The translations under genes and the position numbers were made by a program. DNA of 32,000 nucleotides from Haloferax volcanii DS2 (GTDB taxonomy: Archaea; Halobacteriota; Halobacteria; Halobacteriales; Haloferacaceae), in the NCBI RefSeq assembly GCF_000025685.1, contig NC_013967.1, positions 2,640,001 through 2,672,000 of the forward strand. The letters are read 5' to 3'. This document shows positions 8,247-30,321 of the stretch, in pieces. A model generated the notes under the pieces. That model searched no databases. It was not told where the DNA came from and saw only the letters and a program-made list of their open reading frames with translations. Every line of letters begins with the position of its first letter. Position 1 is the stretch's first letter.

Positions 8247-8255
8247 TCCTCACTC

Positions 8256-8266
8256 TTTTTTCTTTT
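8256..8266 (+). terminator. T-run (TTTTTTCTTTT) right after the int1 stop; archaeal-type terminator candidate
   Basis: Oligo-T tract 10 nt after the stop codon at 8244..8246. Confidence 0.4.
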
Positions 8267-10410: not shown

Positions 10411-10634
10411 CCGGGTAGTTGCGACGATATCTAATCAACAAACAGCGACCGCATTCTCTGCTAAACTAGAACGCATGGGTCGTGAACAGAGCGATGATAG
10501 CCAATGTTTCAGGCCAAGCCGATTCACTCGACTCGACGAACCCGACGCCGTCTTGCGATTAGCCTTTTTGTCCCGCCAAGTAGATTCGCCGGGTTTGCCC
10601 GGAACCGCAGGTACGGCCGCCGGAGGCGGCGTTC

Positions 10635-11738
10635 ATGAGCGATCTGGACGAACTCCCGGTCGTCACCGACGCCTCGAAGGAGTACTTGAACCCCCGCCAG
10701 TTGCTCGACTACCGAGCCGAACGAGAGGCGTGTCTCGACTGGCTGCTCACCTTCGGGAAGAAACCGGACGAGGCGAAGGGCTACGCGCTCGGGACCATCA
10801 AGACGGGTGCCTACCGGATGGACCGGTTCTACCGGTTCGTCTGGGAGGACGAGGGCGGGTACACCGCGAACGTCACCCACGAGCACGCCGACGCTTGGAT
10901 GAAACACCTCGCACGCGGGAACTCGGGCGCGGCACACAAACGCAACTGCCAGAAGTCGATCAAGCGCCTGTTCAAGTGGCGGCAGCACGAGCACGGTCTC
11001 GGGGAGTGGACACCGGACATTACGTTCGCCGCGGACTCCAGCACGAACCCCCGTGACTACTTAACGCGCGAGGAACGCGCGAGTGTGCGCGAAGCCGCGC
11101 TCGAATACGGATCCGTCCCGAACTACGATGGTCTCGCTCCGGCCGAGCGAGACCGGTGGAAGCAGTACCTCGCCCAGCGGTTCGAGAAACCGAAGTCCGA
11201 GGTCACGCCGGACGACTGGGACCGAGCGAACGGGTGGAAGGTCCCGTCGCTCGTCTGGACGAGCCTCGACGCCGGGCTCCGACCCATCGAGGTAGAACGC
11301 TCCACGGTCGGTTGGGTCGATACGGACAACGCGGTCCTCCGGATTCCGAAGGAGGAGAGCTCGAAGAACCGAGATCACTGGGTCGTCGGCCTCACGTCCA
11401 GGACCGCGCAGGCGCTCGACAACTGGCTCGAAGAGCGCGAGACGTACCCCGAGTACGACGACACGGACGCGATCTGGCTGACGCGGAAGTCGAACCCGTA
11501 CGGCACGGCCACGCTTGCATACCTGCTGCGGCAGCTGTGTGACATCGCCGGAATCGACACGACGCACCGGAAGATGTCGTGGTACGCGATCAGACACTCC
11601 GTCGGGACGTACATGACCCGGGAGGAGGACCTCGCGGCGACGCAGGCACAGCTCCGCCACAAGAGCCCCGAGACGACGATGAAGTACGATCAGGTGCCGG
11701 TCGAGGATCGTCAGGACGCCTTAGATCGGATGGGGTAG
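10635..11738 (+). CDS. tyrosine recombinase / phage-type integrase (int2), paralog of int1
   Basis: 367 aa, colinear with int1 (roughly half of residues identical by eye). Same catalytic pattern: AGLRPIEV, WYAIRHSVGT, LRHKSPETTMKY. GC content is host-like. Confidence 0.85.
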   Translation: MSDLDELPVVTDASKEYLNPRQLLDYRAEREACLDWLLTFGKKPDEAKGYALGTIKTGAYRMDRFYRFVWEDEGGYTANVTHEHADAWMKHLARGNSGAAHKRNCQKSIKRLFKWRQHEHGLGEWTPDITFAADSSTNPRDYLTREERASVREAALEYGSVPNYDGLAPAERDRWKQYLAQRFEKPKSEVTPDDWDRANGWKVPSLVWTSLDAGLRPIEVERSTVGWVDTDNAVLRIPKEESSKNRDHWVVGLTSRTAQALDNWLEERETYPEYDDTDAIWLTRKSNPYGTATLAYLLRQLCDIAGIDTTHRKMSWYAIRHSVGTYMTREEDLAATQAQLRHKSPETTMKYDQVPVEDRQDALDRMG

Positions 11739-11878
11739 CTGTAGATGACGGCACTGGCAAAATGTCTCTGCAATAACTGAGGTGCGCTGTTATTCCAAAG
11801 CGCTCCCACCTTGGCAGCGCAGACGTGAGTCAACCGTAAGTTTCCCTCGGGACCCCCCCGAGACCCCTGCGGAAGACT

Positions 11879-13279
11879 CAGTACATCACAAAGCCTGTTA
11901 GTTGAGACGTCTGCTTGCTGAAGATGTGTCCAAGCAACCACAGCAAGCAGACGATGAAATCCACGAGGACCAGCTCCTTAACTTCCTCGTCAACTCTCTT
12001 GACGAGGAAGTTGCTCTCTCACTCGCTGAAAACGCTGAACTCGATGCTGAAGACATCTACGAGGTCCTCGTCGGCGCCTGCGCCGACGGGACCTCGGTCT
12101 CAACGCTCTGTGAGAGAAGCGAAGATGCACCCCACGAAAACTCCGTTCTCTACCATCTCCGCACTAAATTCGATCTAGAAACGCTCGAACAGGTTGGCAA
12201 CATGCTCCTCCAGAAAGACGTTCTCGACGTCCTTCCCCAGCAGGTGGAGGTCTGCGCAGACCTCCACCTGCGGCCCTACTATGGTGACGAAGACGACACG
12301 GACGGCCTGTATCACTCACAAGCGAAGCGTGGAACCACCGCGTTCCACGCGTACGCGACGCTGTACGCACGCGTGAAGAACAAACGCTACACGCTGGCGG
12401 TGCGCCGTCTCGAAGACGGCGACACCGCCAGCAGTGTCCTCGCAGAGTTCCTCGGTATTCTCGACGGCCTTGACCTCGGTGTCAAGGCCGTCTATCTTGA
12501 CCGCGAATTCTACGACAGCAAGTGTTTGACGCTGCTTCAGGCGCACAACCACGCGTACGTCATGCCGATCGTCCGCTGGGGACGGACGATCAAGCGAGAA
12601 CTCTCGGAAGGGTGGAGTCGCGTGATTCAGCACAGTCTGACGGCGAGACTCGACGGTCACAGCTGGACCGTCGAGTTTCCCGTCTACATCGACTGTACCT
12701 ACCAGAACGGACGGTACGACGAACATGGCGTGGCGCGTCACGGCTACGCCGCTGACGCGCCGTTCATCGACTCACCACGAGACGCTCGATACCACTACGC
12801 GAAACGCTTCGGTATCGAGGCAAGCTATCGACTCTCTGAACAAAGTATCGCGACGACCTCGACACAAAATCCGGTTGTACGGCTGCTGTACGTCGTGGTG
12901 AGCTTGCTGTTACAGAACGTGTGGCGGTATCTGCACTGGGAGTACGTGGCGACGCCCCGCCGAGGCGGGCGTCGCCTCTGGCAGTGGCCATTCAAGGAGT
13001 TCATCAACATGATCCGGCGGGCAGCGTGGACGGCCCTCGCGACGCGTCGGGCCGTCCCCGCGAACCGGCCACCGGACGACCGGTTCCACCGGTAACTCCC
13101 GACCGGGCTAGCCAACGGTGGGAGTGGCGACGCTGTCGCGTCGGCGGCAGCCGCCGCCGACAGCGACGGCTCTCCGCCGATCCGTCCATGATTCTCTCGT
13201 CGAAACCGCCAATGCAACCGCTCGGCCACAGAATTCAGGCTTCAGAGACAGCTAGGCGAGGATGCTTTGTGAGGTACTA
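11879..13279 (+). mobile_element. ISH3/IS4-superfamily insertion sequence, copy B
   Basis: IRs are CAGTACATCACAAAGC (11879..11894) and GCTTTGTGAGGTACTA (13264..13279), each with 1 mismatch to copy A. The body is near-identical to copy A and in the same orientation. Confidence 0.85.
11902..13095 (+). CDS. DDE transposase of IS copy B
   Basis: 397 aa. Differs from the copy A protein at only a few positions plus the extreme N-terminus (TTG track start). Confidence 0.85.
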   Translation: MRRLLAEDVSKQPQQADDEIHEDQLLNFLVNSLDEEVALSLAENAELDAEDIYEVLVGACADGTSVSTLCERSEDAPHENSVLYHLRTKFDLETLEQVGNMLLQKDVLDVLPQQVEVCADLHLRPYYGDEDDTDGLYHSQAKRGTTAFHAYATLYARVKNKRYTLAVRRLEDGDTASSVLAEFLGILDGLDLGVKAVYLDREFYDSKCLTLLQAHNHAYVMPIVRWGRTIKRELSEGWSRVIQHSLTARLDGHSWTVEFPVYIDCTYQNGRYDEHGVARHGYAADAPFIDSPRDARYHYAKRFGIEASYRLSEQSIATTSTQNPVVRLLYVVVSLLLQNVWRYLHWEYVATPRRGGRRLWQWPFKEFINMIRRAAWTALATRRAVPANRPPDDRFHR

Positions 13280-13664: not shown

Positions 13665-14663
13665 TCAGGCGCTCACCCCCGGTGGATCGTAGACTTCCTC
13701 TCGGACGAGCATGTAGTACATCGAGACGAGCAGTTTTCGTGCCGTCGCGACGATCGCTTTTTTCGAGTTCATTCGACGATTCAACCGGTGGAAGAACGTG
13801 CTTAGATACGCGTCTTTACACGTGTACACGGCTGAGTACGCACTCTGAACCAAGATCCAGCGAACTCGTCCTGAGCCGCGTTTCGAGATACCACCCTCGA
13901 TCCGCGAGTCACCGGACTCGCGGATCGTCGGGTTCAGTCCCATGTAACTCACGACCTCTTTGTGGCCGTCGAACCGATCGATCTCACCCAGTTCAGCGTA
14001 GACCAGCAACGCGGAGTAGTAACTGACACCGGGGATGGTCATCAGCAGCTGGGTCTCCTTCAGAGACCCAGCGCGCTCCTCAATCGCCGCTTCCAACTGA
14101 GTCATCTGCTCGGTTAGCGTCTCGACCACGTCGAGATACGAGTCCAAGAGACTGTCCCACGGAGACGGGAGCGAGAGTTCCCGGAGGAACTCTCGTCCCT
14201 CGACACTCAGCGGTTTTACCGTCTGAGTGATGCCGTTATCGGCGAGCAAGCCGTGGATTTTGTTGGCGAACTTGGTCCGATCTTCGACCAAGGTCTGTCG
14301 CCCGCGCACGAGTGCGCGGGCTTCCCGAATCTCGTCGGTAGGAACGTAACTCTGCGGAACAGAGTTCAGCCGGAGCAGCCGCGCGAGTTCTTTCGCGTCG
14401 ACGCGGTCGGTTTTCTTGTCTGACCGAGCGATGAGCGTCAGTTTGCCTGGATGAGCGACGGTTACGTCCAAGTACTCCGCGAGAGTATCGTAGACGTGGT
14501 AGTAATTGCTGGTCGCCTCGATTACTGCACGAGAGCCAGCGTATCGCTGAGCGAGGTCGTCGAGGTTCGCGTTTTTGACGCGAACCTCTTCGACAATCTC
14601 GCCCTCGAGGTCCATTACTGCCACCTGTGCGTATCGTTTGTGTAGGTCGATTCCGAGGTACAT
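13665..14663 (-). CDS. IS110-family (DEDD) transposase
   Basis: 332 aa. N-terminus MYLGIDLHKRYAQVAV (the RuvC-like DEDD start typical of IS110). C-terminal part LLMTIPGVSYYSALLVYAELGEIDRF..GLNPTIRESGDS..GISKRGSGRVRW. Confidence 0.9.
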   Translation of the reverse strand: MYLGIDLHKRYAQVAVMDLEGEIVEEVRVKNANLDDLAQRYAGSRAVIEATSNYYHVYDTLAEYLDVTVAHPGKLTLIARSDKKTDRVDAKELARLLRLNSVPQSYVPTDEIREARALVRGRQTLVEDRTKFANKIHGLLADNGITQTVKPLSVEGREFLRELSLPSPWDSLLDSYLDVVETLTEQMTQLEAAIEERAGSLKETQLLMTIPGVSYYSALLVYAELGEIDRFDGHKEVVSYMGLNPTIRESGDSRIEGGISKRGSGRVRWILVQSAYSAVYTCKDAYLSTFFHRLNRRMNSKKAIVATARKLLVSMYYMLVREEVYDPPGVSA

Positions 14664-15012
14664 GGTTCGTTCCTCCGGGATAGGACGGCGGTGCGTGAAT
14701 CAGAAATTCACCTATGCGGGCTTTCCCGGATGCCGCCAGGAGCGGCATCCGGGCTGTGACGCCCATAACTCGGCTTCTTTCGCACTCGGACCAGTCAGCA
14801 CCACGTGCTCTAGCGCACGGAATACAGCTCGGTCTCTTGCGTCCCATAATTGATTCACGCTCCGATGGGATAGCAGAATTTCCATCAAGTCAGCACACCC
14901 CTCCGATCAACCCTGAAAACATCACCAGACCACCTGACTATAGGTCTCGACTAAGCGACGACGGCCGTCCCACAAGTACGGGTCTTGAAATGACTGTTTG
15001 GCTTACCACTCA

Positions 15013-15035
15013 CTAATTATACAAATAGTTTTTAG
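15013..15035 (+). promoter_or_regulatory. AT-rich patch with TATA-like elements upstream of the HTH-HNH-helicase operon
   Basis: TAATTATACAAATAGTTTTTAGA is the only AT-rich stretch between the IS110 end and ATG 15111. It implies a leader of roughly 50-65 nt. Confidence 0.3.
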
Positions 15036-15110
15036 ACTTCATCCAGTATCCTGAGACGGCGTGAAACCGCCACCCGGTGGTGCAACACCGGGCAACAGGT
15101 GCTGCCTCAG

Positions 15111-15413
15111 ATGACAGCAAGAGACACTAATCGTGTCTTGAGTGATAACTCTGACCCTCGGTCGGTCGAGGGCGCGGAGATCGTCACCGAACACGATACA
15201 CGAAGCAGACGAATCGTCCGACACGCGCGGGAGAACGGCGGGACGACGACCCGCAGAGACCTCGTTGCGAAGACGGATCTCACCGCGAGTGAACTCGGAG
15301 AACGCCTACAAACGCTCGAAGACGGAGGGTACGTAGACCAGATCAGCGACGGGGACCACGAACTGGTCGTGCTGACGTTCCGCGGGGAACACCTCGCCGG
15401 AGGGTACCGATGA
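15111..15413 (+). CDS. small winged-helix DNA-binding protein (operon gene 1)
   Basis: About 100 aa. wHTH-like segment TTRRDLVAKTDLTASELGERLQTLEDGGYVDQI. ATG at 15111 is preferred over the GTG track start at 15099. The stop overlaps the next start (ATGA at 15410). Confidence 0.65.
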   Translation: MTARDTNRVLSDNSDPRSVEGAEIVTEHDTRSRRIVRHARENGGTTTRRDLVAKTDLTASELGERLQTLEDGGYVDQISDGDHELVVLTFRGEHLAGGYR

Positions 15414-15793
15414 GCGACGCCGAGCACGCGTACGCCATCCCCATGGACCCCGACGACGCGTTCCGGGCAATCTCGAACAGCAGGCGTCGCCAGGTGATCC
15501 TCTCGCTCGCACAGTCCGAGAGCGCGCTCACGGCGTCGGAACTCGCCGTGGAGATCGCGGCGATCGAGAACCTCGTCGATCCGTCCGAGGTAACGAGCGA
15601 GCAGCGGACCCGCGTCTACGTCTCGCTGGTCCAGTCTCACCTTGAGACGCTCGACCGGGCGGGCGTCGTCGAGTACGACGAGCGGGGGAAGCGAGTCTCG
15701 CCGACCGACGCCACGGAACCGGTCGCCGGACACGTCCGCCGGATCACGACGGCGTGTTACAGGCCGGACGCGGGGAGGGGCGATGAGTCGTAG
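15410..15793 (+). CDS. ArsR-like HTH protein of a haloarchaea-typical small regulator family (operon gene 2)
   Basis: 127 aa. FRAISNSRRRQVILSLA..LTASELAVEIAAIEN..RTRVYVSLVQSHLETLDRAGVVEYDERGKRV is the pattern of a common haloarchaeal HTH family. Confidence 0.7.
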   Translation: MSDAEHAYAIPMDPDDAFRAISNSRRRQVILSLAQSESALTASELAVEIAAIENLVDPSEVTSEQRTRVYVSLVQSHLETLDRAGVVEYDERGKRVSPTDATEPVAGHVRRITTACYRPDAGRGDES

Positions 15794-16568
15794 CGACGGG
15801 TACCGAACCTTCCCGACGAGCGTTCGGAGAGAAATCCTGAAGCGGGACGATTTCCAGTGCCAGGTCTGCGGACGCCTCGGCCCCGAGCGCGGCGGGAACA
15901 TCGACCTCGAAGCGCACCACATGCGGGAGGACCCCGAGTACGTATATCGGGACCACGCGGACAACGGCACGACGATGTGCATCCCGTGTCACCACCTGAT
16001 CACCCACCGGACGACGGCCGACGACCTCCTGTTCGCCCTCGACGACGTCGCCGCCGAGGTCAACCTCCTGTACAAGGACATCGAGATCCTCGTGTACCTG
16101 TACGAGCACGGCCCCGCGACGACGAGCGAGATCCGCGAGGCGACGAGCGGTTCCGCCCGGACGTCGATCATCGAGCGGCTCTGGACGCTGATGTCCGTAG
16201 ACAGAGACGTCGATTCCCTCGACGGGCCGCTCATCGACAAAGACCTCGACACGGACGAGTGGGGGTACCCCGACGACATCGGTCGGACCGTCCGCGGACG
16301 CGTCCCCGAGGGAGAAGAGGAGTTAGTCAACCGGTTGCGGGACGAACTGCTCCGGCGGCTCCTCGATGCAGGCGTGAACCGATCGACCCTCGCGCTGTTC
16401 TTCGGTCGTTCTCGGAGAGCCACCTTCTACATCGCCAAGCGGGCCGGAGCGATCCGGGTCCCGTTCGACGACGAGTCTCACCCGGACGCGCTGATGGACG
16501 AAGACGAGTTCGACCGGGTGGTCGATGGGATGGAACGATTGTTCAGGGGTAGCGACCGGTCGAGATGA
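15783..16568 (+). CDS. HNH endonuclease domain fused to a C-terminal winged helix (operon gene 3)
   Basis: An internal ATG of track ORF 15642..16568 gives 261 aa. HNH pattern: CQVCG..DLEAHHMRE..NGTTMCIPCHHLITH. Then LVYLYEHGPATTSEIREATSGSARTSIIERLWTL. Overlaps the upstream gene by 11 nt. Confidence 0.75.
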   Translation: MSRSDGYRTFPTSVRREILKRDDFQCQVCGRLGPERGGNIDLEAHHMREDPEYVYRDHADNGTTMCIPCHHLITHRTTADDLLFALDDVAAEVNLLYKDIEILVYLYEHGPATTSEIREATSGSARTSIIERLWTLMSVDRDVDSLDGPLIDKDLDTDEWGYPDDIGRTVRGRVPEGEEELVNRLRDELLRRLLDAGVNRSTLALFFGRSRRATFYIAKRAGAIRVPFDDESHPDALMDEDEFDRVVDGMERLFRGSDRSR

Positions 16569-17452
16569 CCGGTAATTGTTCAAGGGAGATGTGTGTAGCG
16601 ACTGAGAGAACGACGACGAGTCGGAGCCGATCGATGGAACACGTACACGCGCGACATGACGAACTGCCCGGGCAGTTGACGCTGCACGTCGGCGACGAGG
16701 AACTGCTGTTGGACCGGGCTCGCCCCCGCGTTCGACCGACCGAGTTGGTGGTCGCACCCGTCGAGTTGCACAAGCGGAACGTCCAGCGGAGACTTCGTGA
16801 GCGGAGCGCGTCGAAGGGCGCGTTCGAGTTCGAGGACCCCGTGGGAGTGAGCCGGAGCGTCCTCGACGAAACGAACGTGCCGAGCAAGGCGATAGACCGA
16901 ATCGACCGCCTCGCGCTCGTGCGCTCGCTTCTGACGGAGAGCGAGTCGCGGGAGGCAGCCGGGGTATCGTTACCTTCGGGAGTCCCCTCGCGCGACCCGC
17001 AGTCCGTCGAACAGCTTCGCACCGAGGTGGAGGCGTTAACCAACTTCCACCCGGAGCGGGTCGGGGCGTGGAGGAGCGCGGCCGGGAGCTTGTACGAACC
17101 GATCGACGCCGAGAGCGAGGGGCAACTGGACGCCGCGCTCGACGTGGAGCGCGCGCTCCGAGAGCGGACGCCCAAAGCGATTTCCGAGACGGAACTCGTC
17201 CGACGAGCGACCCGTGCGATCACGGCGACGGAGGGCTCCGCGTGGACGGACGCGTATCCGGAAATCGAGCGCCTCACGCTCGTCGGTGTGAGCAGTCTCT
17301 CCGCACCGCACGCCGACCTCGTTCACTCGCTGCTGCTGGCGACGTCGCTGGAGGTTCACGTCCACTTCCGCCGGGGAACCGGGGAGTTCCTCCGAGGTCG
17401 GACGCCGGCACTTCTCGACATCGCCGGCCCGGGGAGGGAGGTGTTCGAATGA
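16565..17452 (+). CDS. AddB/RexB-like N-terminal (domain 1A-like) protein without a Walker A motif (operon gene 4)
   Basis: 295 aa. LTLHVGDEELLLDRA occupies the position of G-x-x-G-x-GKT. ELVVAPVELHKRNVQRRL resembles the AddB 'LIVPEQ..f..E..L' segment. ERLTLVGVSSLSAPHADLVHSLL resembles 'iyiDGF..ftP.E..li..L'. ATGA overlap at 16565; ATG 16634 is an alternative start. Confidence 0.5.
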   Translation: MTGNCSREMCVATERTTTSRSRSMEHVHARHDELPGQLTLHVGDEELLLDRARPRVRPTELVVAPVELHKRNVQRRLRERSASKGAFEFEDPVGVSRSVLDETNVPSKAIDRIDRLALVRSLLTESESREAAGVSLPSGVPSRDPQSVEQLRTEVEALTNFHPERVGAWRSAAGSLYEPIDAESEGQLDAALDVERALRERTPKAISETELVRRATRAITATEGSAWTDAYPEIERLTLVGVSSLSAPHADLVHSLLLATSLEVHVHFRRGTGEFLRGRTPALLDIAGPGREVFE

Positions 17453-18690
17453 CGTCGTCGAACCGGCTCTCGCTCTCGCGTCCGCTCGCAGAGACCGAGA
17501 CGCCGGTCGTCGAAGTCGTGGCGACGACCCGCCGCGAGGAAGCGCGGAGCGCGATGGCGGTCGTCGCGGCGCTGCGCGACCGGGGCGTTCCCGTCCGCGA
17601 TATCGCGGTGGTGGTCAGAGACCTCGACGCGTACGAACCGCCGTTCTTCAGGGCGGCGGTTCAGTACGGGATGGCCCCGGTGTTCTGGACGCAGCTCTAC
17701 GTCACCAGGACCCGCCCGTACGCGCTCGTCGAATCTGTCTGCGACGCGCTCGACGCGGAGGAACTCGACTCGGACACGCTCCTCCGCCCGCTCGAACACC
17801 GATGGGCCCCGGTGGAGGCGACGACGGACGAGTGGCCCGTCGAACCGGCGGCACTCGACCGGGTGAGACGAGCCCTCCCCGGGGGCTCTCGGACGCTCGA
17901 AGAGTGGACCGAGGCGCTGGAGGCGAGCGACGCGGACCCCCGCGTTCTGACGTTCGCGGACTGGCTCGGTACCGCTCCGGACCCGAGTCCTGAAACCGTT
18001 CGGTCCGTCCTGAGCGACGTCGTCGAGGGGTACGCCGAACACGGGCTCCCCGTGACGAAGGAGGCGGACTCGCCGGCACTGCTCGACACGGAGACCGACG
18101 CCCGGGCGGTCGTTCGGGTTCGGACCCTCGTCCGGCAGCTCCGTCACAAGTTCGACGACAGGCTCGACGAGGGAGCGGTCGAACGCTCGTGGGGCGACGT
18201 GGCGGAACTCGCCAACGTGATCGCCACGCAACGCCCGGGGCGACGCGAGCACTCCAACGCCCGCGCGCTGGACGTACTGGAGGCGAACGACGTGTGGGCG
18301 CTAGACGTCCCGTTCGTCGTGGCCGTCGGTCTGACTGCCGACGACTGGCATAGAGTGACCGATTCGATGGTCCCGCCGGAGTTCCAAGAGACGGTGTTGA
18401 GGGGAGACGGCGACGTCGGGAAGCTCGCGCCGAGACCGTCGTGGGTGAACGGACGCGACCGCGACCAGTTCCTCGACACGCTCGGCGCTGCCGGCGAAGC
18501 GGTCATCGTGACGCGGCACACGCAGACCGTCGACGGGAACGAAGTCTATCCATCCCCGTTTCTCGACCGGATAGACGCCCGGAGGATCAACGAATCCGAC
18601 AGACAGCGGCTGGTGAGTGAGGAACGAGAGCTGCCACCGGAGATACGACGGTTACTGCCACCGCAAGCGGAGGTGAGCGATGGTGAGTGA
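17449..18690 (+). CDS. AddB/RexB-like C-terminal (UvrD_C/2A-like) protein lacking a nuclease domain (operon gene 5)
   Basis: An internal ATG of track ORF 17068..18690 gives 413 aa, preceded by GGAGGTG. DIAVVVRDLDAYEPPFFRAAVQYGMAPVF and ALDVLEANDVWALDVPFVVAVGLTADDW resemble conserved AddB/UvrD 2A-domain segments. No PD-(D/E)XK or Cys cluster is visible. ATGA overlap with gene 4. Confidence 0.5.
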   Translation: MTSSNRLSLSRPLAETETPVVEVVATTRREEARSAMAVVAALRDRGVPVRDIAVVVRDLDAYEPPFFRAAVQYGMAPVFWTQLYVTRTRPYALVESVCDALDAEELDSDTLLRPLEHRWAPVEATTDEWPVEPAALDRVRRALPGGSRTLEEWTEALEASDADPRVLTFADWLGTAPDPSPETVRSVLSDVVEGYAEHGLPVTKEADSPALLDTETDARAVVRVRTLVRQLRHKFDDRLDEGAVERSWGDVAELANVIATQRPGRREHSNARALDVLEANDVWALDVPFVVAVGLTADDWHRVTDSMVPPEFQETVLRGDGDVGKLAPRPSWVNGRDRDQFLDTLGAAGEAVIVTRHTQTVDGNEVYPSPFLDRIDARRINESDRQRLVSEERELPPEIRRLLPPQAEVSDGE

Positions 18691-21600
18691 GGAGGAGGCG
18701 ACACCCGACGGCCCGCTCCGGTTGAAAGGGGCACAGCGGGAGATCAGGGACGAGTACTTCGCCTGCGACGCGGGGCTGTTCACGCTCAGCTGCGTTCCCG
18801 GTTCCGGGAAGTCGGCGACCGCAACTCACATCGCCGCAGAAGACCTCCTCCGTCGGTACGTCGACGGTGATCCGACCCCCGAGCTGCACGTCGCGGTGGT
18901 CTCGTTCAACAGGGACGAGGCCGCCTCGATCGTTCCCGCGGTCTGTGAGCGGCTCCGAGTCATCGTCGAACACGAGCTCGTTCCGGCCGCGTCGGAGGTG
19001 TCCGAACCGGAACTGAAGTACCTCCTCCAGCGGGTTCGTCGAGCGCCGTTCATCGGGACCATCGACAGCCTACTCAGGGGAGTCCTCCGAGAGGTCGTTC
19101 ACGACGTGGGGTTCGAGACGATGCCGTCGGTCGGAAACGAGGCGCTGTTGAAACGAGTCCACGCAGAGTGTTACGACCGAATCTCCGACGACCCGGCGTG
19201 CGCACGCCGACTCGAACGGCTGGAAGCCGCGTATCCGTCGGGTGACCACGACGCCGGCGTCGCGGAGATGCTCGAACGGGCGCTGAGGTACTGCCGCGAC
19301 CGGCGGCTCACGACGGAAGCGTTTCGGGTCGAGCTCGAACGAACGCGCGACGCGGTGTACGGAGACGGAGAGCCGGACTCGTTCGAGGACGTAGTATCGA
19401 GCGTGGAGCGCTGTCTCGGCGACTACGAGGCGGCCGGAGAGCGAGCCCGCGATTCGGTAAGCGACGTGGACCGTGGCCGCATCGTCGAAGCGGACAACGC
19501 GCTGTACCACGCGTGGGGCGCGCGTATCGAAGACCTCTGCGAGACGCTCTCGACGTACCGGGAGACCTACCGAGACGCCGTTCGTGAGTTCGGCGTCCTG
19601 TCCCACATCGACGTCTCGTACCTCGTCGACGCGTACTTCGGCGGCGAGTTCGAAGACTTCGACCGCGAGCTCCGGGACCACGTGCTCGGGAAGTACCGGT
19701 CCCGGATTCGGAGCCTCATCGTCGACGAGGCGCAGGACGTCTCGGCGATACAGCACGCCGCGCTCTCGCACCTCGTCACGCCCGAAGTGCGCGTTCTCGG
19801 CTGCGGGGACGTCCTGCAGGGAATCTACCTGTGGCGGCACGCGGACCCGTCGCTGTTCGAGTCGGCCACGACATCCGGTCGGTACCTGGGTATCGACTGG
19901 GACGTCCACGAGAACCGGACCGCGGCGACGACGTACCGCTGCGTGCCGGCGATCGCGTCCGCCGTCAACACCGTCGCGGAACCGATATTCGGCGATCCCG
20001 CCCGCGGGAACATCGGCGACCTCGATGCGGAATACACTCCGCTGGAGGCCGCGCGAGACGAGGTCGAAGAGACCGCCGTGCACGTCTCCTCGTTCACCGG
20101 CGTCGGCCATCCCGGGACGTCCACGTGGGCGAACCCCGACGGGGGACGGGGAGAGGCGAACATCCTGGCGACGCACATCTCTCGCGGTATCTCCGACGGG
20201 ACGTTCGCCGACGAGAACGGAGACCCGCTCGGGATCACCGTCCTGTTCAGGCGCAAATCGAGGATGAGCGATTACGATGCCGCGTTCGAAGCGGAGGGGC
20301 TCCGCGTCCGAAACGCGAGCGAGAACCTCTTCGACTGCCCCGCAGTTCGGGCCGTGTTCGACGTCTGTGACTGGCTCGTCGATTCGGCTTCGCCGGAGGG
20401 GACGAGGCGACTCGTCACGGAGTCGGGTCTCGGCCTCGAATCTCTCGAAGGGATCTTCGAAGCGAACGCGTGGAGTGTCGATCGCGTGCTCGACAGCGCA
20501 GACGAGGGCGCTCTCACCGAAGCCCAAAGAGAAACGCTCGCGGCGCTTCGTCGGCTCCGCGACCGCCGCGACGTCTTCGAGACGTTCCCCGCTCGGACGT
20601 ACGTCGAGGAGGTCGTCGGAGCCCTCGCGCTCAGGGCGGACCCTCACGGTGACTTCGGAGACGTCGATCCCGCGCAGCGGGTCGCAAACGCGGACGCGCT
20701 CGTCGAGACGATAGCGCAGTGGGCGGGTGACGAGCACCACTCTCTCCCCGATCTACTGGACCTCGTCGAGCCGTTCCGAGAGGAACCGGACGCCGGGCCG
20801 ACACGGCCGAGTTCCGTCGACGCCGATTACGACGTGCTCTTCCAGACGGTGCATCGCGCCAAGGGCGACCAGGACGACGTCGTCGTTATCGCGGACCCAG
20901 GGTTCAATATCTGGACCCAGGGCCCCCACGCCCAGCGCTTCGTCGCACAGGGCAACATCGCGGGGCTCGCGCCGCCGACGGACGCGAGCGCTCCCACCGA
21001 CGTCACGATCCCGCCCTTCGACGGTGGGCTGTACGACCCGAGCGACGGGTGGCAGCGCGACGTCGGGCTCCGTTGGGCGACCGCTCGATGGCGTGATACG
21101 GCTGTCCCCACTGCAGATCCCGACGTCCTCGTCGGTCCTCCGAGACTCCGCCGGTTGGCCGAGAACGAGCGGGCCGAGTCCTGGCGGCTGCTGTACGTCG
21201 CGCTCACGCGTGCGATGGACCACTTGATGATCCCGTTACCGAGGACTTTTCCCGGGGGACGCCCGCGAGACCGCTGGCTCGACTCGATCCGTGACGGGCT
21301 CCGCTTCCCGGACGGGTGTACAGAGACGTACACGCTCGCGCCGATCGAGTCGGACCCGAACAGCGAGCGGATACGGATCGGCGTCAACGACGCCGACCTG
21401 CTGGCCCGTCGGCACAGGAAGGGGAGCTCGACGCCGCTTCCCGAGGTCGCCGTGAGAGCTCCCATCTCCGATCGACTGGCTCCGTGGGTTCCTCGTTTCG
21501 TCAACCCGAGCACGATGTATCCCCTCACGAAGGACAAGGACCGATACGCGCTCGCTCACCTGCTCGGAGAACCGCTCCACACCGAGACGAACGACGTCGC

Positions 21601-22204
21601 GGAGGACCTGCCACTCGTCTTCGAGCGGATGGGCCCCGACGAGGTCGGGTCCTGCGTGCACGGGGTACTGACCGAACTCGTCAAACGCGAGGTGTCGGAG
21701 CGCGCCGTCCGATCGATGGGCGACGAGGTCAGAGACGTGTTCGACGAGGTCGTTCACGAACGCGAACCGGGTATCGGCGTCGACGAGCGGGACGGGCTGT
21801 TCGCCTTCTTCTCGGATGTGCTCGACGATTTCTTGGAATCCGACCTCTGGGCGCGGATCGCGGAGGCGGAGACCGTCGTCGTCGAGCGCCCCGTCGACGG
21901 ACTCGTGTCGCTCGGGGACGTCGAGATCGAAGTCCACGGCGAGGCGGACTTCCTCACCGTGTCTCCCTCGGGTGAGATTCACGTCACCGACGTGAAGGCG
22001 TCCCTGACCGATCTGACCGAGGAGACCCGACGCCGGTACGAACTACAGGTAGCCGCCTACGGATACCTCTTCGACCGGCAAGAGGCATCGGCGGAGCCGG
22101 TGCGACGGACCGTCGAGACGTTCGGCGCGACGCGCGAGACCGTCTCGTCGTCGTGGTCGCCGTCGATCGTCGAACGCCGGTTGTCCATGCTCACGGACGA
22201 TTGA
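18680..22204 (+). CDS. AddA/RecB-like SF1 (UvrD/Rep) helicase fused to a C-terminal PD-(D/E)XK nuclease (operon gene 6)
   Basis: 1174 aa. SF1 motifs: CVPGSGKSAT (I), VVSFNRDEAA (Ia), LIVDEAQD (II), GDVLQGIYLWRHA (III), TYRCVP (IV), VHRAKGDQDDVVVI and LLYVALTRA (V/VI). C-terminal nuclease pattern: GSCVHGVL..GEADFL..IHVTDVKAS..YELQVAAYGY. Confidence 0.85.
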   Translation: MVSEEEATPDGPLRLKGAQREIRDEYFACDAGLFTLSCVPGSGKSATATHIAAEDLLRRYVDGDPTPELHVAVVSFNRDEAASIVPAVCERLRVIVEHELVPAASEVSEPELKYLLQRVRRAPFIGTIDSLLRGVLREVVHDVGFETMPSVGNEALLKRVHAECYDRISDDPACARRLERLEAAYPSGDHDAGVAEMLERALRYCRDRRLTTEAFRVELERTRDAVYGDGEPDSFEDVVSSVERCLGDYEAAGERARDSVSDVDRGRIVEADNALYHAWGARIEDLCETLSTYRETYRDAVREFGVLSHIDVSYLVDAYFGGEFEDFDRELRDHVLGKYRSRIRSLIVDEAQDVSAIQHAALSHLVTPEVRVLGCGDVLQGIYLWRHADPSLFESATTSGRYLGIDWDVHENRTAATTYRCVPAIASAVNTVAEPIFGDPARGNIGDLDAEYTPLEAARDEVEETAVHVSSFTGVGHPGTSTWANPDGGRGEANILATHISRGISDGTFADENGDPLGITVLFRRKSRMSDYDAAFEAEGLRVRNASENLFDCPAVRAVFDVCDWLVDSASPEGTRRLVTESGLGLESLEGIFEANAWSVDRVLDSADEGALTEAQRETLAALRRLRDRRDVFETFPARTYVEEVVGALALRADPHGDFGDVDPAQRVANADALVETIAQWAGDEHHSLPDLLDLVEPFREEPDAGPTRPSSVDADYDVLFQTVHRAKGDQDDVVVIADPGFNIWTQGPHAQRFVAQGNIAGLAPPTDASAPTDVTIPPFDGGLYDPSDGWQRDVGLRWATARWRDTAVPTADPDVLVGPPRLRRLAENERAESWRLLYVALTRAMDHLMIPLPRTFPGGRPRDRWLDSIRDGLRFPDGCTETYTLAPIESDPNSERIRIGVNDADLLARRHRKGSSTPLPEVAVRAPISDRLAPWVPRFVNPSTMYPLTKDKDRYALAHLLGEPLHTETNDVAEDLPLVFERMGPDEVGSCVHGVLTELVKREVSERAVRSMGDEVRDVFDEVVHEREPGIGVDERDGLFAFFSDVLDDFLESDLWARIAEAETVVVERPVDGLVSLGDVEIEVHGEADFLTVSPSGEIHVTDVKASLTDLTEETRRRYELQVAAYGYLFDRQEASAEPVRRTVETFGATRETVSSSWSPSIVERRLSMLTDD

Positions 22205-22443: not shown

Positions 22444-23394
22444 ATGACCGAATCGGACCCCGCGGAACTCCCACCGCCGAACGAGGGGACGCCGCCGCTC
22501 GACGCCGCGGTCGCGGTGGAGTGGTGGTTCGAGTTCGAGGAGGACGGACGGCCGAAGCTCGACACGTTCCACGGCTTTCACGACGCCGAGAAGATCGCGG
22601 ACGGAGATCTTCCGGAAGTCGAAGACAGCGAGGTAGTCACCGCGACCGGTGCCCCCGTCGATTCGAACGGTGCGCTCGAAGGGGACGCGGGAGACCCCCG
22701 CCACGTGTTCCTCACGCATCGAGAGGCGCTTTCGCGCGGTATCGACCCGTGTACCAGTTGTTTCCCGCGGTACGCGACCGACCGTCGTATCGAGAGGGAG
22801 CGAGGAGACGACGGGCTCCTCACCGAACCGGGCGTCGAGGGTGTCGTGTTCAAGCTCTCCACCCGGTACGACTTGGAGTCCGACTGGACCGTCGATTCGC
22901 TTCACGATTCATACACGTCGATGCTGTACCGCGCTCGCGCGGTTCGTAAACACGCCGGGTCCGCCGGTGGGCGGCTTCGCGTCTCGTACATGCCGATTCG
23001 GCGGTGTGACTACGCGTCGTTCGAGCAGGCGATGGCCGCGGAGCCGTCGATGGCACACGTGTCCAAGCTCAGGTCGATACAGCCCGACGAACTGCCAGCA
23101 GTTCGTGATCGATTCGGCGACGACGCGCTTCGAACGCAGGTCGTCCACGAGCACCGCGTCACGGACACGGCCGACACGAGACCGCCGATACTCCACGAGT
23201 CGGAGAGTCCGCCCTGTGGATACGAACGCGATTCGCCCCTCTGGGGCGGGGAAGAGGACGAAGAGATTCGGGAGATGTTCGAGGATGTCCGACCGACGGT
23301 CGCCGACGTCATCGAACAGGGTAACGTGGTCCGGTTCTGTGAGACGTGTTTCCCGGAGCTCGCGTCGTGGGACGAGGACGCTATGGACGAGTAG
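22444..23394 (+). CDS. acidic hypothetical protein with two C-x-x-C-F-P motifs
   Basis: 316 aa with strongly acidic, haloarchaeal-type composition. DPCTSCFPRY and RFCETCFPEL lie about 200 residues apart and could be a split zinc-binding site. No family recognised. Confidence 0.6.
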   Translation: MTESDPAELPPPNEGTPPLDAAVAVEWWFEFEEDGRPKLDTFHGFHDAEKIADGDLPEVEDSEVVTATGAPVDSNGALEGDAGDPRHVFLTHREALSRGIDPCTSCFPRYATDRRIERERGDDGLLTEPGVEGVVFKLSTRYDLESDWTVDSLHDSYTSMLYRARAVRKHAGSAGGRLRVSYMPIRRCDYASFEQAMAAEPSMAHVSKLRSIQPDELPAVRDRFGDDALRTQVVHEHRVTDTADTRPPILHESESPPCGYERDSPLWGGEEDEEIREMFEDVRPTVADVIEQGNVVRFCETCFPELASWDEDAMDE

Positions 23395-23427
23395 TTCCCT
23401 CGACCGCTCCCGTCCGATAGAAGAGCG

Positions 23428-23700
23428 CACCTCGTTTCCTGACTTCAGCCTTCCGGGCACCTGGTTTCCTTACTGGGGGTTTTGGAACACCTCGTTTCCT
23501 CACTGAGGGTAGACCCCGTTTCCGCACTGGGAGGATTTCGAGCGCTTAACGTCCTTCTGAAGACACCACCTCGTTTCCGCACTGGGTGTTTTCCGGACAC
23601 CACATTTCCGCACTGAAGGTGACCCCGTTTCCGCACTGGATGTTCTGGGGCACATCATTTCCGCACTGAGGCCTCACCTCGTTTCCTCACTGGGACATCG
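23428..23700 (+). repeat. array of nine direct iteron-like repeats, consensus CAC(C)TCGTTTCC(G/T)CACTGRG
   Basis: The (G/A)TTTCC cores begin at 23434, 23464, 23494, 23518, 23573, 23604, 23627, 23657 and 23681. All have the same orientation, with spacings of 30, 30, 24, 55, 31, 23, 30 and 24 nt. The array lies between convergent genes. Confidence 0.85.
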
Positions 23701-23715: not shown

Positions 23716-24333
23716 TCACACCTTCAGCAGATGGTCGTAGATTCGCTCGGTCGTCTGGATGCTCCTGTGACGAAGGCGATTACGAACGTCGTAGAGCGAG
23801 TTCCCTTCCTCTTCGTTCATCATCCGGTAGGCGACGCCGTGCCGGAGGGCGTGCGGCGTGACGTCGCCGGGAGTCCCCCTACTCCCATCAAGCCTGAAGG
23901 GGCGAATCTCCGCCTTTTCGGCTATTTTGTGGATCATATTACGGACACCCTGTTCGGAGATGCGATCGGAAGAGCGCGATGGAAAGAGCGCCGGTGTGTC
24001 CTTCCACCGGTTGGTGAGATACGAAGACAGCAGTCGCGTGGTGTCGTCGGAGCATTCGAGCGTGACCGGCGGCGGCGAGTGCTCGTTGGGGTAGTCCTTC
24101 TGGACCTCGGTCGGCAGGTAGAGTTCCGAGTTGTCGTTGCGAAGGAACTCGACGTCGACGCGGACGAGTTCGCCGACGCGGAGTCCCGTGTCGTACATCG
24201 CGGTCACGATGGCTTCGTTGCGTTGCTGTAGGTACTCAGCACCGGTCGTGTAACACGCCGAGCGGAGCGCCTCGACTTGGTCGGGTGTCACCCACACTTT
24301 CGCTCGAACTTTGGAGTTTGCATATTCGCTCAT
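23716..24333 (-). CDS. small tyrosine recombinase (int3), catalytic domain only
   Basis: 205 aa. TGLRVGELVRV (Arg), TPHALRHGVAYRM (H-x-x-R), RLRHRSIQTTERIY (His..Tyr). Confidence 0.8.
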   Translation of the reverse strand: MSEYANSKVRAKVWVTPDQVEALRSACYTTGAEYLQQRNEAIVTAMYDTGLRVGELVRVDVEFLRNDNSELYLPTEVQKDYPNEHSPPPVTLECSDDTTRLLSSYLTNRWKDTPALFPSRSSDRISEQGVRNMIHKIAEKAEIRPFRLDGSRGTPGDVTPHALRHGVAYRMMNEEEGNSLYDVRNRLRHRSIQTTERIYDHLLKV

Positions 24334-24678: not shown

Positions 24679-26093
24679 GTCTTAGGACCATTGGTGTTCG
24701 GTTAAGCACTGGATCGCCTCCTGAAGGCCTCAGCTACTCGTTCGTTGAGTAAGAGCCGCGATTTCTCTGGTTGGCGGGCGTCACGAAACAGCAGTTCCGA
24801 CAGGTTCGGCGGTGGATGGCCGAACGACTGGGCCAGATCTTCGAGCATGAGCTGGGCGAGAGACCGGAAGGTCTTCGCCCAGCGTTCTCGCGGAAACACT
24901 GTCTCTGGGAACAGCTCCTGAAACACCCCGAGCAAGGCTCTGCTGACCGTCAGCGTCAGCAGAGCCGCCACCACTAACAGCTCCACGATCGCTGGATCAC
25001 TCGTCTGGAATTTCTCCAGCCCATACAGCGACTTCAGTTCCCGGAACACCAACTCCACTTCCCACCGCAACCCGTACAGCGCCCCGACCTGCCTTGGAGT
25101 GAACTCATCGGGCAGATTCGTCACGTACAGGTGGTAGTCGTCGGTGTCCTCGTTGCGGACACCGACGACGCGAAACTCCATCGAATCCGTTGATTCCTTC
25201 CCAGCGTATGCCCGCCGTTTGAACTCGATCTCTACCGTTACGTCGATGATCTCCCGACTGAGATCTTCCAGAACGTCCCGAAGACGACGCTCTGGCAAGG
25301 AAATGGCGCGCCCGCGCCATTTCCGTCGCTCTCCAACGATCAACGGATTCGCGTTCGACTTCAGCCGACTCAGGAAGAACCCGCCGTTCTCCTCGATCAA
25401 CGCGAAGCGGCGGAAACTGTAGAAGCCCAGATCGAACAGTAACAGCCGGCCTCGTAGCCAACTCCCGGTGCGGAGTTGGCTGCTCTCGTGGGTGCGTTCA
25501 TCGGTGAGCTGGAACTGCTCGATCGTCTGCTTGGTCGCGTTCTGCACGAGGTGGAGTTTCGCGCCGGATTGACCCGAGTGAGTGGCTGGAAACGAATCGA
25601 GGAGCCGATGCAACCTGAACACGGTTGCATCGGCGATCAGTACGTCTCGAAACAGCTCGAACTGTGGCGCGATCGTGTGAGGAACCGCGACCTCCTCGAG
25701 AGCGTGCTCGAGGAGGTCGTTCAACAGTGCTGCGAGGGCCGGCGTGAACCGATCGTAGAAGCTTGAGCGGGCAACGGTCTGGTTGGTTGCTGCGGAGTAC
25801 GCCCGTTGAAAGCCGGCGATAGTTCGGGCTTCGCCGTCGACGGCGAAGCCCATGATGAGCGTCCAGACGAGCATCGTGATGTCGATTTTCCGGTCACGCT
25901 GGACGACATCGCGCTCGCGCGCGATGTCTTCGATTAGCTCGGTGGGAAACAGGGAAGTCAACCGTCGTCGTATGAGATCCGGGGAGAGTTGGTTTAGCAC
26001 ATTCTCTCCCCACGCGGTCTACAACGATAGCTTCGTCACTAGAGCGCCGTCTGTCGGTTTCTCCGCTTAACCGAACACGGATGGTCTTAGGAC
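24679..26093 (-). mobile_element. IS4-family insertion sequence (about 1415 bp)
   Basis: Imperfect 29-bp terminal IRs: GTCTTAGGACCATTGGTGTTCGGTTAAGC (24679..24707) and GCTTAACCGAACACGGATGGTCTTAGGAC (26065..26093). A single transposase ORF whose stop lies inside the IR. Confidence 0.85.
24702..26000 (-). CDS. IS4-family DDE transposase
   Basis: 432 aa. LIADATVF and LLLFDLGFYS supply the Asp residues. YGLRWEVELVFRELK matches the IS4 Y-x2-R-x3-E-x6-K signature. Confidence 0.9.
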   Translation of the reverse strand: MLNQLSPDLIRRRLTSLFPTELIEDIARERDVVQRDRKIDITMLVWTLIMGFAVDGEARTIAGFQRAYSAATNQTVARSSFYDRFTPALAALLNDLLEHALEEVAVPHTIAPQFELFRDVLIADATVFRLHRLLDSFPATHSGQSGAKLHLVQNATKQTIEQFQLTDERTHESSQLRTGSWLRGRLLLFDLGFYSFRRFALIEENGGFFLSRLKSNANPLIVGERRKWRGRAISLPERRLRDVLEDLSREIIDVTVEIEFKRRAYAGKESTDSMEFRVVGVRNEDTDDYHLYVTNLPDEFTPRQVGALYGLRWEVELVFRELKSLYGLEKFQTSDPAIVELLVVAALLTLTVSRALLGVFQELFPETVFPRERWAKTFRSLAQLMLEDLAQSFGHPPPNLSELLFRDARQPEKSRLLLNERVAEAFRRRSSA

Positions 26094-26111
26094 GATACAC
26101 CCCCCTGAGCG

Positions 26112-26218
26112 GAGTGTCTACAGACCGATTCGCAAGTTCATATCTCCGTAGACACTCTCTAAGGAGTGTAGAAAGTGTCTACGGTCTTTGAGAAAACATC
26201 AATATATTGATAAACATC
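26112..26218. repeat. cluster of GTGTCTAC motifs plus an AT-only 14-bp palindrome
   Basis: GAGTGTCTAC at 26112..26121, its inverse GTAGACACTC at 26148..26157, and AAGTGTCTACGG at 26173..26184. The perfect palindrome ATCAATATATTGAT at 26198..26211 is flanked by AAACATC on both sides. Confidence 0.7.
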
Positions 26219-26227
26219 CCGGAAATG

Positions 26228-26812
26228 TACATTGAAAAATGCACGATCTATTTGGAATCGTAGGACGGCAAGGGGAGACGTTTCTGAAAATCCTCTGTAT
26301 GTGTGAGAATTTTTAGTTTATCTGGGTCGAATTTGAGTGGAGTCCGCTAATCCGCAGGTCAACCCATGCAACGAAATCACGATGATCTGTTTGGAACCAA
26401 AAGACGGCGATAGATCCGTCCATCACATTGATTTCTGCACGCATTCTTTGGGATCGAAAGACGGCGGAGAGGCGGAAAGAAAGTTCCATTTCCCGGCCGA
26501 ACTCCGCTTGTGCGGCTACTTTCGGTGTCAATCCTGATTTGACCCTTCTGGACGTGATTGTAGTCAGATCTCTGAACTTTTACCTACATTGAAATCCGCA
26601 CGATTGATTCGTAATCCGGAGACAGGGCTCACTTCACGCTTCGCTGTGAAATCGACACGATCCGTTGGGAATCGCTATCCCGCAGCTCGGGTACCGGATC
26701 TCGACGTGGCATCGGAATACTGATGATTGAGATGATAGGTTCCTAAACCACGGATCTCCCGGGTACTACCGGCGAATACTCACATTGAATTTCGTACGAC
26801 TTCTTCGTGTGG
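26228..26812 (+). repeat. six degenerate direct repeats of about 32 nt, consensus ACATTGAAAnnnGCACGATnnnTTTGGAATCG, in AT-rich non-coding DNA
   Basis: Copies start near 26228, 26368, 26424, 26585, 26644 and 26781, alternating long and short spacing (140, 56, 161, 59, 137). Several are followed by a (A/G)GACGGC box. Confidence 0.65.
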
Positions 26813-27267
26813 CAAGTAGAAGCGCCAGCATCCCCAGCTAGCGGTGTTTGAATTTCTGCCATTCGTGTCCGATATTTGTCTGGACATAATTCTATCATAT
26901 AATCGAATAACTCTCTCGAATACCATTATAGAACTCGCACAACTGCTGATTGGACATATAACATAGATGTGCATTCTTATCAAGAGTTTTGACGGATTCA
27001 ATGAGGAATCTGATAGCTTGTCCGAGCAGACCGGAGTTGGAGGGGTTCTAGCCGATCATCGAATTTGAAATACCAACAGAGAGTGTTCTGAAAATATGTT
27101 CTCTGCTGGTATGCAGAGTCGGTGGTCGCGGTTGGGTGGTTCGATGCGCTTAGTCGAACGCCCCATCTTCGACGTCCGGAACCCCCCGAACGGATTGACG
27201 CGACGGATGTCTCAATGGCTTCCTTCTCTGTTTGGTCGGCTGCACTGGTCCGGTCTATGCCGCGCAG

Positions 27268-30241: not shown

Positions 30242-30321
30242 CTTCTCTGAGGAACAACGTGACGAAGAGAGAGCGGAGCGTAGGGGATTTGAAACAGGGA
30301 GCGAACAGAGCGAGCGACTGA

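Follow-up and report, generated by a model that had tools for sequence, protein, structure and literature searches.

DNA-end helicase-nucleases of the AddAB and RecBCD types are treated as a bacterial hallmark. Does an archaeon encode one as well? The question is raised by a stretch of 32,000 nucleotides (nt) of the main chromosome of Haloferax volcanii DS2 (NC_013967.1, positions 2,640,001 to 2,672,000; hereafter the window), in which six adjacent genes, HVO_2822 to HVO_2827 (here G1 to G6), end in a large putative helicase-nuclease, G6. We consider it reasonably probable that HVO_2825-2827 (G4-G6) encode three polypeptides that together make up a relative of the bacterial DNA-end helicase-nucleases AddAB and RecBC, an accessory enzyme that would chiefly degrade or process linear incoming DNA. 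If so, an AddAB-type machine exists in a laboratory species that is open to genetics, and the locus is of interest less for any new mechanism than because it corrects the current assumption that AddAB and RecBCD are absent from archaea.

A 2026 H. volcanii preprint states that such nucleases are not present in archaea and have no direct homologues in H. volcanii, and a review of DNA repair in this species (PMC7776575) records HerA and NurA as absent and does not list HVO_2827. In our literature search, HVO_2822-2827 were not named in any paper, and no archaeal AddAB-like enzyme was described. In the databases, the UniProt, JGI and NCBI pipelines label the proteins 'ATP-dependent helicase/nuclease subunit A/B', and Pfam PF26510 (Halo_UvrD_like) covers G4. 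An earlier note, made from the DNA letters alone, had called the system undescribed, which is right for the literature and wrong for the databases.

A conserved three-gene core within a six-gene operon

Direct reading of the window revealed six same-strand open reading frames (ORFs) at 15111-22204 (Table 1), as the earlier note had described. Each junction overlaps, from G1 to G6 by 4 (ATGA), 11, 4, 4 and 11 nt, with the ATGA overlaps at 15410, 16565 and 17449 and the 11-nt overlaps at 15783 and 18680. That the six genes together make up the conserved unit was not borne out when gene content was counted in the 30 related loci that had enough upstream sequence to judge. All 30 loci have homologues of G4 and G5 ahead of the G6 homologue, and the overlaps are conserved. 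G2 was found in 10 loci and as a frameshifted copy in one more, G1 in 7-8, and G3, which encodes the HNH protein, in 6. All three upstream genes are missing from 19 of the 30 loci, and loci with equally close G6 genes lack them. The conserved unit is therefore G4-G5-G6, each gene being represented by more than 120 homologue clusters, and the upstream module of two helix-turn-helix (HTH) genes and one HNH gene is facultative.

The start of G4 in GenBank/RefSeq is 16634 (272 amino acids, aa), and with that start there is no overlap between G3 and G4. An ATGACC start overlapping the stop codon of G3 is kept in loci L001, L002, L015 and L017 (~60% identical to the window), and many G4 homologues are called at 294-295 aa, so that the longer start, giving 295 aa, is plausible. 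Compared with the 95-96% identical locus of Haloferax massiliensis, the ratio of non-synonymous to synonymous substitution rates (dN/dS) was 0.09-0.24 for G2-G6 (0.09 for G2; 0.21-0.24 for the G4-G6 core) and 0.57 for G1, which indicates purifying selection on all six genes. Collinearity with the H. massiliensis island starts at 14926, and the leader that follows contains a single AT-rich stretch, TAATTATACAAATAGTTTTTAGAC, a candidate archaeal promoter with TATA box and B recognition element (TATA/BRE).

G6 resembles the motor-nuclease subunit AddA

G6 matched the Pfam families UvrD-helicase (E = 1.7e-14) and PDDEXK_1 (4e-10). When a family profile built on 26 homologues was searched against PDB sequences, the best match was Bacillus subtilis AddA (3u44_A, 2.3e-30), followed by AdnB (2e-24) and then by Rep, UvrD, PcrA and RecB (1.7e-8). 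Across the 26 sequences, the helicase residues G41, G43, K44, D349, E350, Q380, R420, K728, G729 and R844 are invariant, and motifs III to VI are conserved in every one. The nuclease residues H994, D1090, [D/E]1104-x-K1106 and Q1123-x3-Y1127 are likewise present in 26/26 homologues. The Pfam matches, the AddA profile match and the invariant motifs bear out the earlier reading of this protein as a superfamily 1 (SF1) UvrD-type helicase with a RecB-type PD-(D/E)XK end, and the coordinates given in that reading for the GSGKS motif and the nuclease Asp codon are correct (Table 1). Judged by its sequence, G6 is predicted to be an AddA/RecB-type subunit, comprising an active-looking UvrD-family SF1A motor and a C-terminal RecB-type nuclease.

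G4 and G5 form a split AddB-like partner

Searching Pfam, NCBIfam, PADLOC, PHROGs and PDB sequences with the single sequences of G4 and G5 yielded no usable match, so the identity of the two proteins was resolved only through structure prediction and profile searches. The AlphaFold2 model of G4 had a mean predicted local distance difference test score (pLDDT) of 87.6 and a predicted template-modelling score (pTM) of 0.86; the G5 model had a pLDDT of 80.6. In Foldseek searches of the PDB, AddB chains ranked first for both models with a probability of 1.00. For G4, AddB (4cej_B, E 1.7e-5, TMq 0.60) was followed by UvrD and RecC, and for G5, AddB (3u4q_B, E 1.6e-13) was followed by UvrD, PcrA, RecC and AdnA. 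The RecC chains 8b1t_C, 7mr4_C and 1w36_C were among the fold matches of both proteins, and the lower matches also took in Rep and AdnA/B. The G5 profile had a sole match among PDB sequences, AdnA (E 0.0019).

The neighbourhoods and more distant relatives agreed with the models. G4 and G5 constitute a single ORF of ~670-720 codons in 9 of the 30 loci, a more distant clade with 34-40% identity to G6, and most of the G5 homologue clusters, of which there are more than 120, keep the split with the same 4-nt overlap. An exhaustive G5 profile search retrieved 56 clusters (50% identity) of the family proper and then, beyond a score gap, proteins of 1100-1190 aa in which G5 aligns at ~300-710 and which weakly match addB_Gpos (4e-13). 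In hhalign, the G5 profile aligned to residues 314-718 of one full-length haloarchaeal AddB-like protein (P0454, 1155 residues) with a probability of 98.75%. Among the G4 homologues, 120/120 of the matches listed carry PF26510.1, including the 94% identical H. massiliensis protein; G4 receives the label through these precomputed Pfam matches of its homologues.

Walker A motifs were found in 0/30 G4 and 0/40 G5 family members, and the CX2CX5C motif in none of the G4 or G5 members searched. G5 ends after a 2A-like domain, at the point where the nuclease domain of AddB would start. The fusion in related neighbourhoods, the structures, the profile alignment and the missing motifs together identify G4 plus G5 as an ATPase-dead, nuclease-less AddB-type scaffold split at an inter-domain linker. 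As modelled, G4 is the N-terminal half, carrying the RecA-like 1A/1B part of this helicase scaffold, and G5 is the C-terminal 2A/2B half. The earlier proposal of a two-piece, inactive AddB-like scaffold thus stands on the Foldseek matches, the nine fused loci and the hhalign result, with the amendment that the Fe-S nuclease domain of AddB is gone.

Several polar blocks are invariant in the family (PVELH-R-N-Q-RRLRE and IDRIDRL in G4; QRPGRREHSNA...D..EA.D.W in G5), and they are candidates for contacts with DNA or between subunits. The most conserved block of G5 (QRPGRREHSNARA; 18229-18267, residues 261-273) lies in a loop of the AlphaFold model with pLDDT <50, and it may be ordered only once bound to DNA or to a partner subunit.

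The upstream genes encode winged-helix proteins and an HNH protein

G1 matched Pfam DUF7343 (E 3e-6), HTH_24 (2e-4) and MarR_2 (4e-4), all slightly under the curated cut-offs, and a PHROG annotated as transcriptional regulator (6e-5). G2 matched Pfam DUF7344 (E 2e-23) and NCBIfam ArsR/SmtB (5e-6). Both are winged-helix proteins by Pfam, in agreement with their earlier description as two small HTH proteins, and from these matches G1 is presumed to be a MarR/DUF7343-like regulator and G2 a DUF7344 (ArsR-like) regulator.

G3 matched PHROG HNH families (1.8e-8), NCBIfam IscB HNH (2.7e-5) and Pfam HNH (0.016), and it aligns to McrA. Its residues C26, C29, H45, H46, N61, C66, C69 and H70, which make up an N-terminal zinc-finger HNH domain, are invariant. 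Matches to a central winged helix (~95-140) and a C-terminal HTH (~190-225) were weak but recurrent. These matches and residues uphold the earlier view of G3 as an HNH nuclease with a winged helix. G3 homologues (34-42% identity) also occur on three plasmids that lack the G4-G6 core, and these proteins matched Pfam HNH at 1e-6 and 5e-7. Regulation of the operon is the probable task of G1 and G2; G3 may contribute a further nuclease.

In L002 and L015, identity to the window was 81-88% for G3 vs 61-68% for G4-G6. Across L002, L015 and L017, the HNH proteins are 76-88% identical and the adjacent G4-G6 proteins 54-68%. Stronger constraint on G3 or recent exchange of the upstream module are possible explanations. 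In four loci (L002, L017, L018 and L020; Table 1), a conserved gene of 167-175 aa fills the slot that follows G2 and precedes G3 or G4. It showed weak matches to Mut7-C, a PIN-like RNase with zinc ribbon (E 0.003-0.17, below any threshold), and in L018 and L020 it stands in place of the HNH gene.

The family is patchily distributed, with signs of horizontal spread

All named homologues come from Halobacteria, about 20 genera in all, and the distribution is patchy. The family is carried by at least 15 haloarchaeal megaplasmids and is present twice in some genomes, and identity to G6 within Haloferax ranges from 96% down to 39%. Patchiness, megaplasmid carriage, double copies and this range of identities within one genus indicate horizontal spread. 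In a single-protein scan of genome contigs, the sole match was the H. massiliensis orthologue. No family member was found in the 2.9 million viral contigs of IMG/VR, where nine matches reflected the generic UvrD motif; PHROGs gave only generic helicase and HNH matches, and a viral origin was rejected on these grounds. The neighbourhoods contained no conserved linked replication or transfer gene.

The neighbours include McrBC and a DUF1156 methylase at one locus, and an SNF2 helicase, a second helicase and a DUF1156 methylase at another, which gives that locus a DISARM-like look. TnpB, MazE, PIN toxins and insertion sequence (IS) elements were also present. A PADLOC scan of 208 neighbouring ORFs returned about a dozen matches, including MkoA, Csx1, a type IIG restriction-modification (RM) system and DrmMI.

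The operon lies in an integrated island at tRNA-Glu

Exact 42-nt direct repeats 23.3 kb apart, one of them the 3' end of a tRNA-Glu gene, mark the bounds of an integrated island of ~23.3 kb that contains the operon (Table 1). The position of the operon inside a tRNA-Glu element, between an IS110 transposase and a recombinase/iteron module, was stated in the earlier note and is borne out by the coordinates. Its accessory, non-core character, also stated there, is confirmed by the integrated island, the megaplasmids and the collinearity with H. massiliensis. The third, partial att copy suggests successive integrations at tRNA-Glu. The island looks composite or tandem: it holds two paralogous tyrosine integrases, and the 80 nt leading into the second (10560-10639) recur at 30496-30575 with 81% identity, just beyond attR, where the following ORF (30602-31150) is unrelated to integrase.

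The H. massiliensis island is otherwise collinear but has no IS4-family element (L001 joins 24688 to 26084), which marks the element as a recent insertion. A unit of ~1.2 kb is duplicated at 8728-9943 and 11877-13095 (88-94% identical over aligned 57 and 300 nt). The ~390-aa ORF in each copy had no Pfam or PHROG match, and the repetition alone marks the unit as probably an ISH-type insertion sequence. The iteron array downstream of HVO_2828 could serve the element as an origin of replication or as a site bound by a recombinase. G+C content is low at 7001-9000 (0.45-0.51) and 26001-27000 (0.47) compared with 0.63-0.70 in the operon and flanks, and the island looks like a mosaic assembled from several sources.

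Two candidate annotations were discarded. A tRNA-Gly(CCC) of 82 nt, called by ARAGORN at 22648-22729 (-) inside HVO_2828, was not found at the Rfam gathering threshold, where tRNA-Glu was the only match in the window, and is probably a false positive. The island is also not one of the four H. volcanii proviruses: Halfvol1-3 use tRNA-Pro, tRNA-Ala and tRNA-Arg, and Halfvol4 corresponds to HVO_2252-2293.

Table 1. Coordinates of the operon, the motifs of G6, the surrounding island and related loci. Positions refer to the window unless a locus label (L) precedes them.
Feature	Position	Strand	Details
G1 (HVO_2822)	15111-15413	+	100 aa; alternative GTG start at 15099
G2 (HVO_2823)	15410-15793	+	127 aa
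G3 (HVO_2824)	15783-16568	+	261 aa
G4 (HVO_2825)	16565-17452	+	295 aa
G5 (HVO_2826)	17449-18690	+	413 aa
G6 (HVO_2827)	18680-22204	+	1174 aa
G6 Walker A, GSGKS	18800-18814	+	G41-S45; G41-x-G43-K44-[S/T] in 26/26
G6 DEAQD	19724-19738	+	residues 349-353; kept in 26/26
G6 nuclease, D1090 to K1106	21947-21997	+	D1104 codon 21989-21991
G6 QxxxY	22046-22060	+	Q1123-x3-Y1127
Operon leader	14926-15110	+	AT-rich stretch at ~15014-15040
tRNA-Glu(UUC) gene	6860-6934	+	ARAGORN, Rfam
attL, tRNA-Glu 3' 42 nt	6893-6934	+	exact direct repeat at 30200-30241
attR, exact 42-nt copy of tRNA-Glu 3' end	30200-30241	+	repeat search
Third, partial att copy	30302-30343		last 22 nt identical; 100 nt further on
Tyrosine integrase 1	7092-8246		directly after attL
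Tyrosine integrase 2	10635-11738		53% identical to integrase 1
IS110 transposase	13665-14663		outside segment shared with H. massiliensis
HVO_2828	22444-23394		316 aa; downstream of HVO_2827; no family match
Iteron array	23411-23697		nine ~23-nt iterons, consensus about CACCTCGTTTCCGCACTGRG, spacing 23-55 nt
Small tyrosine recombinase	23716-24333	-	205 aa
IS4-family DDE transposase	24702-26000	-	absent in H. massiliensis
167-175-aa slot gene	L002 6614-7117; L017 2735-3238; L018 7342-7869; L020 7342-7869
Halobacterium sp. NMX12-1 pair	L103 1442-8523		WP_353634488.1; P0454 1155 aa + 1204-aa UvrD+PDDEXK directly downstream
Natribaculum luteum plasmid pair	L102 3471-10453		DNA methylases on flanks

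Proposed function and competing explanations

By analogy with AddAB, AdnAB and RecBCD, the G4-G5-G6 complex would load on free duplex ends. The G4 and G5 halves would reassemble, helped by their tight translational coupling through the 4-nt ATGA overlap, and G6 would be the sole ATPase motor (UvrD-type, 3'-5') and the sole nuclease of the complex. The G6 motor would unwind the ends and the G6 nuclease would cut the displaced strand or strands, while the dead G4-G5 scaffold would hold or guide the other strand and possibly scan it. The G1-G3 module, added in one sub-lineage and dispensable for the core, would probably supply regulators and an auxiliary nuclease. Gene structure, folds, conserved motifs, fission and fusion of G4 and G5, distribution and the island setting are observed; that the three proteins form a complex, that they depend on free ends, and their strand polarity and biological role are inferred.

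As to what the host gains, the main benefit may be that linear or broken incoming DNA is destroyed or processed in an ExoV-like manner, which would exclude viruses and plasmids; we put this forward tentatively, as a proposal a little short of likely. Genomic context suggests a defence role for the operon. The enzyme could also feed ends into recombination, and by comparison with RecBCD the defence and repair roles need not be exclusive. Several points weigh against a defensive AddAB relative. Bacterial AddAB and RecBCD are primarily repair enzymes. G6 scored 50.5 bits against the NCBIfam AddA equivalog TIGR02785 (cut-off 707.65) and 53.7 against TIGR02784 (860.75), far too little for an orthologue of characterised AddA. 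Apart from the generic UvrD motif of GajB, nothing in PADLOC matches the core. The defence context suggested by the neighbours is anecdotal, amounting to ~12 of 208 ORFs with a background rate lacking, and several loci sit amid ordinary metabolic or housekeeping genes. Supplementary tables of four H. volcanii transcriptome papers do not mention HVO_2822-2827.

Alternatively, the enzyme may serve mainly in double-strand-break repair, providing homologous recombination with long-range end resection where the host lacks HerA-NurA, with its place on an island being incidental. Homology to AddAB, AdnAB and RecBCD speaks for such a role, as do the loci amid metabolic genes. HerA and NurA are absent from H. 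volcanii according to the review that leaves HVO_2827 unlisted (PMC7776575), and deletion of mre11-rad50 is tolerated according to the 2026 preprint, which assumes that no AddAB/RecBCD homologue exists. However, the gene set is carried on islands and megaplasmids, occurs twice in some genomes, differs from 96% to 39% in identity within one genus, and associates facultatively with an HNH nuclease and restriction-type neighbours. Its patchy occurrence in Halobacteria means that it is not their general solution to resection, and we regard repair as its main role as rather unlikely.

A more ambitious version of the AddAB/RecBCD relationship is doubtful. Here the enzyme would be a full archaeal counterpart, an end-processing hub that degrades linear invader DNA, feeds recombination and CRISPR spacer acquisition, and uses the invariant polar surface of the dead, split AddB-like subunit to read a Chi-like self-marker. 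If true, Archaea would have their first case of Chi-type discrimination between self and non-self. The H. volcanii locus makes the questions of long-range end resection, of the ends used in spacer acquisition and of ExoV-type protection testable.

We also considered that all six genes constitute one obligate new defence system, with the HNH protein as effector or second-strand nuclease and the HTH proteins as sensors or regulators. Every junction overlaps, the ATGA overlap of G3 and G4 is kept in four divergent loci, and G3 is the most conserved gene in L002 and L015. The slot gene that replaces the HNH gene in L018 and L020 hints at a need for a second nuclease, but its Mut7-C matches fall below any threshold. 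The gene counts point the other way, with HNH in 6/30 loci and G1, G2 and G3 all missing from 19/30. HNH homologues occur on plasmids without the core, and RecBCD shows that one nuclease suffices for this enzyme class. An obligate six-gene system is accordingly improbable.

Service to the mobile element itself, through end processing in replication, transfer or integration or through competition with rival elements, appears highly improbable. The att-bounded island, the adjacent iteron array and recombinases, and the frequent carriage on megaplasmids among toxin-antitoxin and IS genes would fit it. The core is nevertheless found in unrelated backbones and amid chromosomal housekeeping genes, has no member among the viral contigs of IMG/VR, and has no conserved linked replication or transfer gene. 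Finally, the idea that an AddAB operon was acquired horizontally and is now decaying at this locus, with the split AddB as a pseudogene, fits a partner in two ORFs that lacks nuclease domain and ATP-binding motifs, but it can practically be dismissed and was rejected in view of the conserved split and overlap, the many invariant G4/G5 residues, the dN/dS of 0.21-0.24 and the confident AlphaFold2 models.

Comparison with known systems

None of the six proteins gave a full-length match to one system in PADLOC-DB v2.0.0 (systems named after 2023 being outside its scope), in keeping with the earlier statement that the gene set does not match Gabija, Hachiman, Nhi, Hna, DISARM or Zorya. G4 and G5 had no PADLOC match, G3 matched PtuB weakly (8.6e-4), and G1 and G2 matched Csa3/CARF winged-HTH families weakly. 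The only PADLOC family that G6 matched repeatedly was GajB, the UvrD-family protein of Gabija (best E 3.5e-14). These matches are local, covering ~60-110 residues around helicase motifs II/III, within 335-446. GajB has neither a RecB nuclease domain nor an AddB-like partner, and GajA, an OLD-family ATPase-TOPRIM protein, had no PADLOC match in any of the six proteins. Gabija and other named defence systems were rejected on the local extent of the GajB matches and the missing GajA.

Mycobacterial AdnAB is a heterodimer of UvrD-like subunits acting at DNA ends, in which AdnA and AdnB both carry ATPase motifs and a RecB nuclease. In the haloarchaeal enzyme only G6 has both, the G4/G5 partner being without ATPase motifs and nuclease. 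AdnB is the second-best solved relative of G6, and AdnA is the sole PDB sequence match of G5 (structures 6PPJ and 6PPR).

AddAB (RexAB) shares more with the family. The gene order is the same, with a B-type partner upstream of the A subunit. Both A subunits combine a UvrD-type SF1A motor with a C-terminal RecB nuclease, AddA being the best solved relative of G6. Both B subunits have a UvrD-like fold without helicase activity, AddB being the best structural match of G4 and G5 (structures 3U44 and 4CEH). The haloarchaeal partner differs in being split and in lacking Walker A and the C-terminal Fe-S RecB-type nuclease (CX2CX5C). NCBIfam scores are far below the cut-offs for AddB as well as AddA (8.7 bits, E 0.27, for the B-type partner against TIGR02773, cut-off 903.7), the host is an archaeon and the location is a mobile island.

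The partner lacks the Fe-S nuclease, so the enzyme has a single nuclease and its logic is closer to RecBC than to AddAB. A RecB-like motor-nuclease (G6), a RecC-like dead scaffold (G4 plus G5) and one nuclease are the features shared with RecBCD. This likeness is one of logic only: the sequence affinity of G6 to RecB is weaker than to AddA, and neither the operon nor the conserved neighbourhood has a gene for a RecD-type SF1B motor. RecC also retains a dead nuclease-like C-terminal domain, which G5 does not have.

The nearest relatives outside the family are pairs of full-length AddB-like and AddA-like proteins in haloarchaea, with the same gene order (Table 1). In these pairs the partner is a single protein of ~1138-1155 aa and the A subunit has 1189-1204 aa; G6 is collinear with the A subunit at 24% identity. 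The partner P0454 ends in CX2CX5C, the AddB/Cas4-type Fe-S staple, and has therefore retained the AddB-type C-terminal domain. In Halobacteria the machine is found in three evolutionary states: with a full-length partner, with one that lacks the nuclease, and with one that lacks the nuclease and is split. The family is a natural experiment on how much AddB an AddAB-type enzyme needs.

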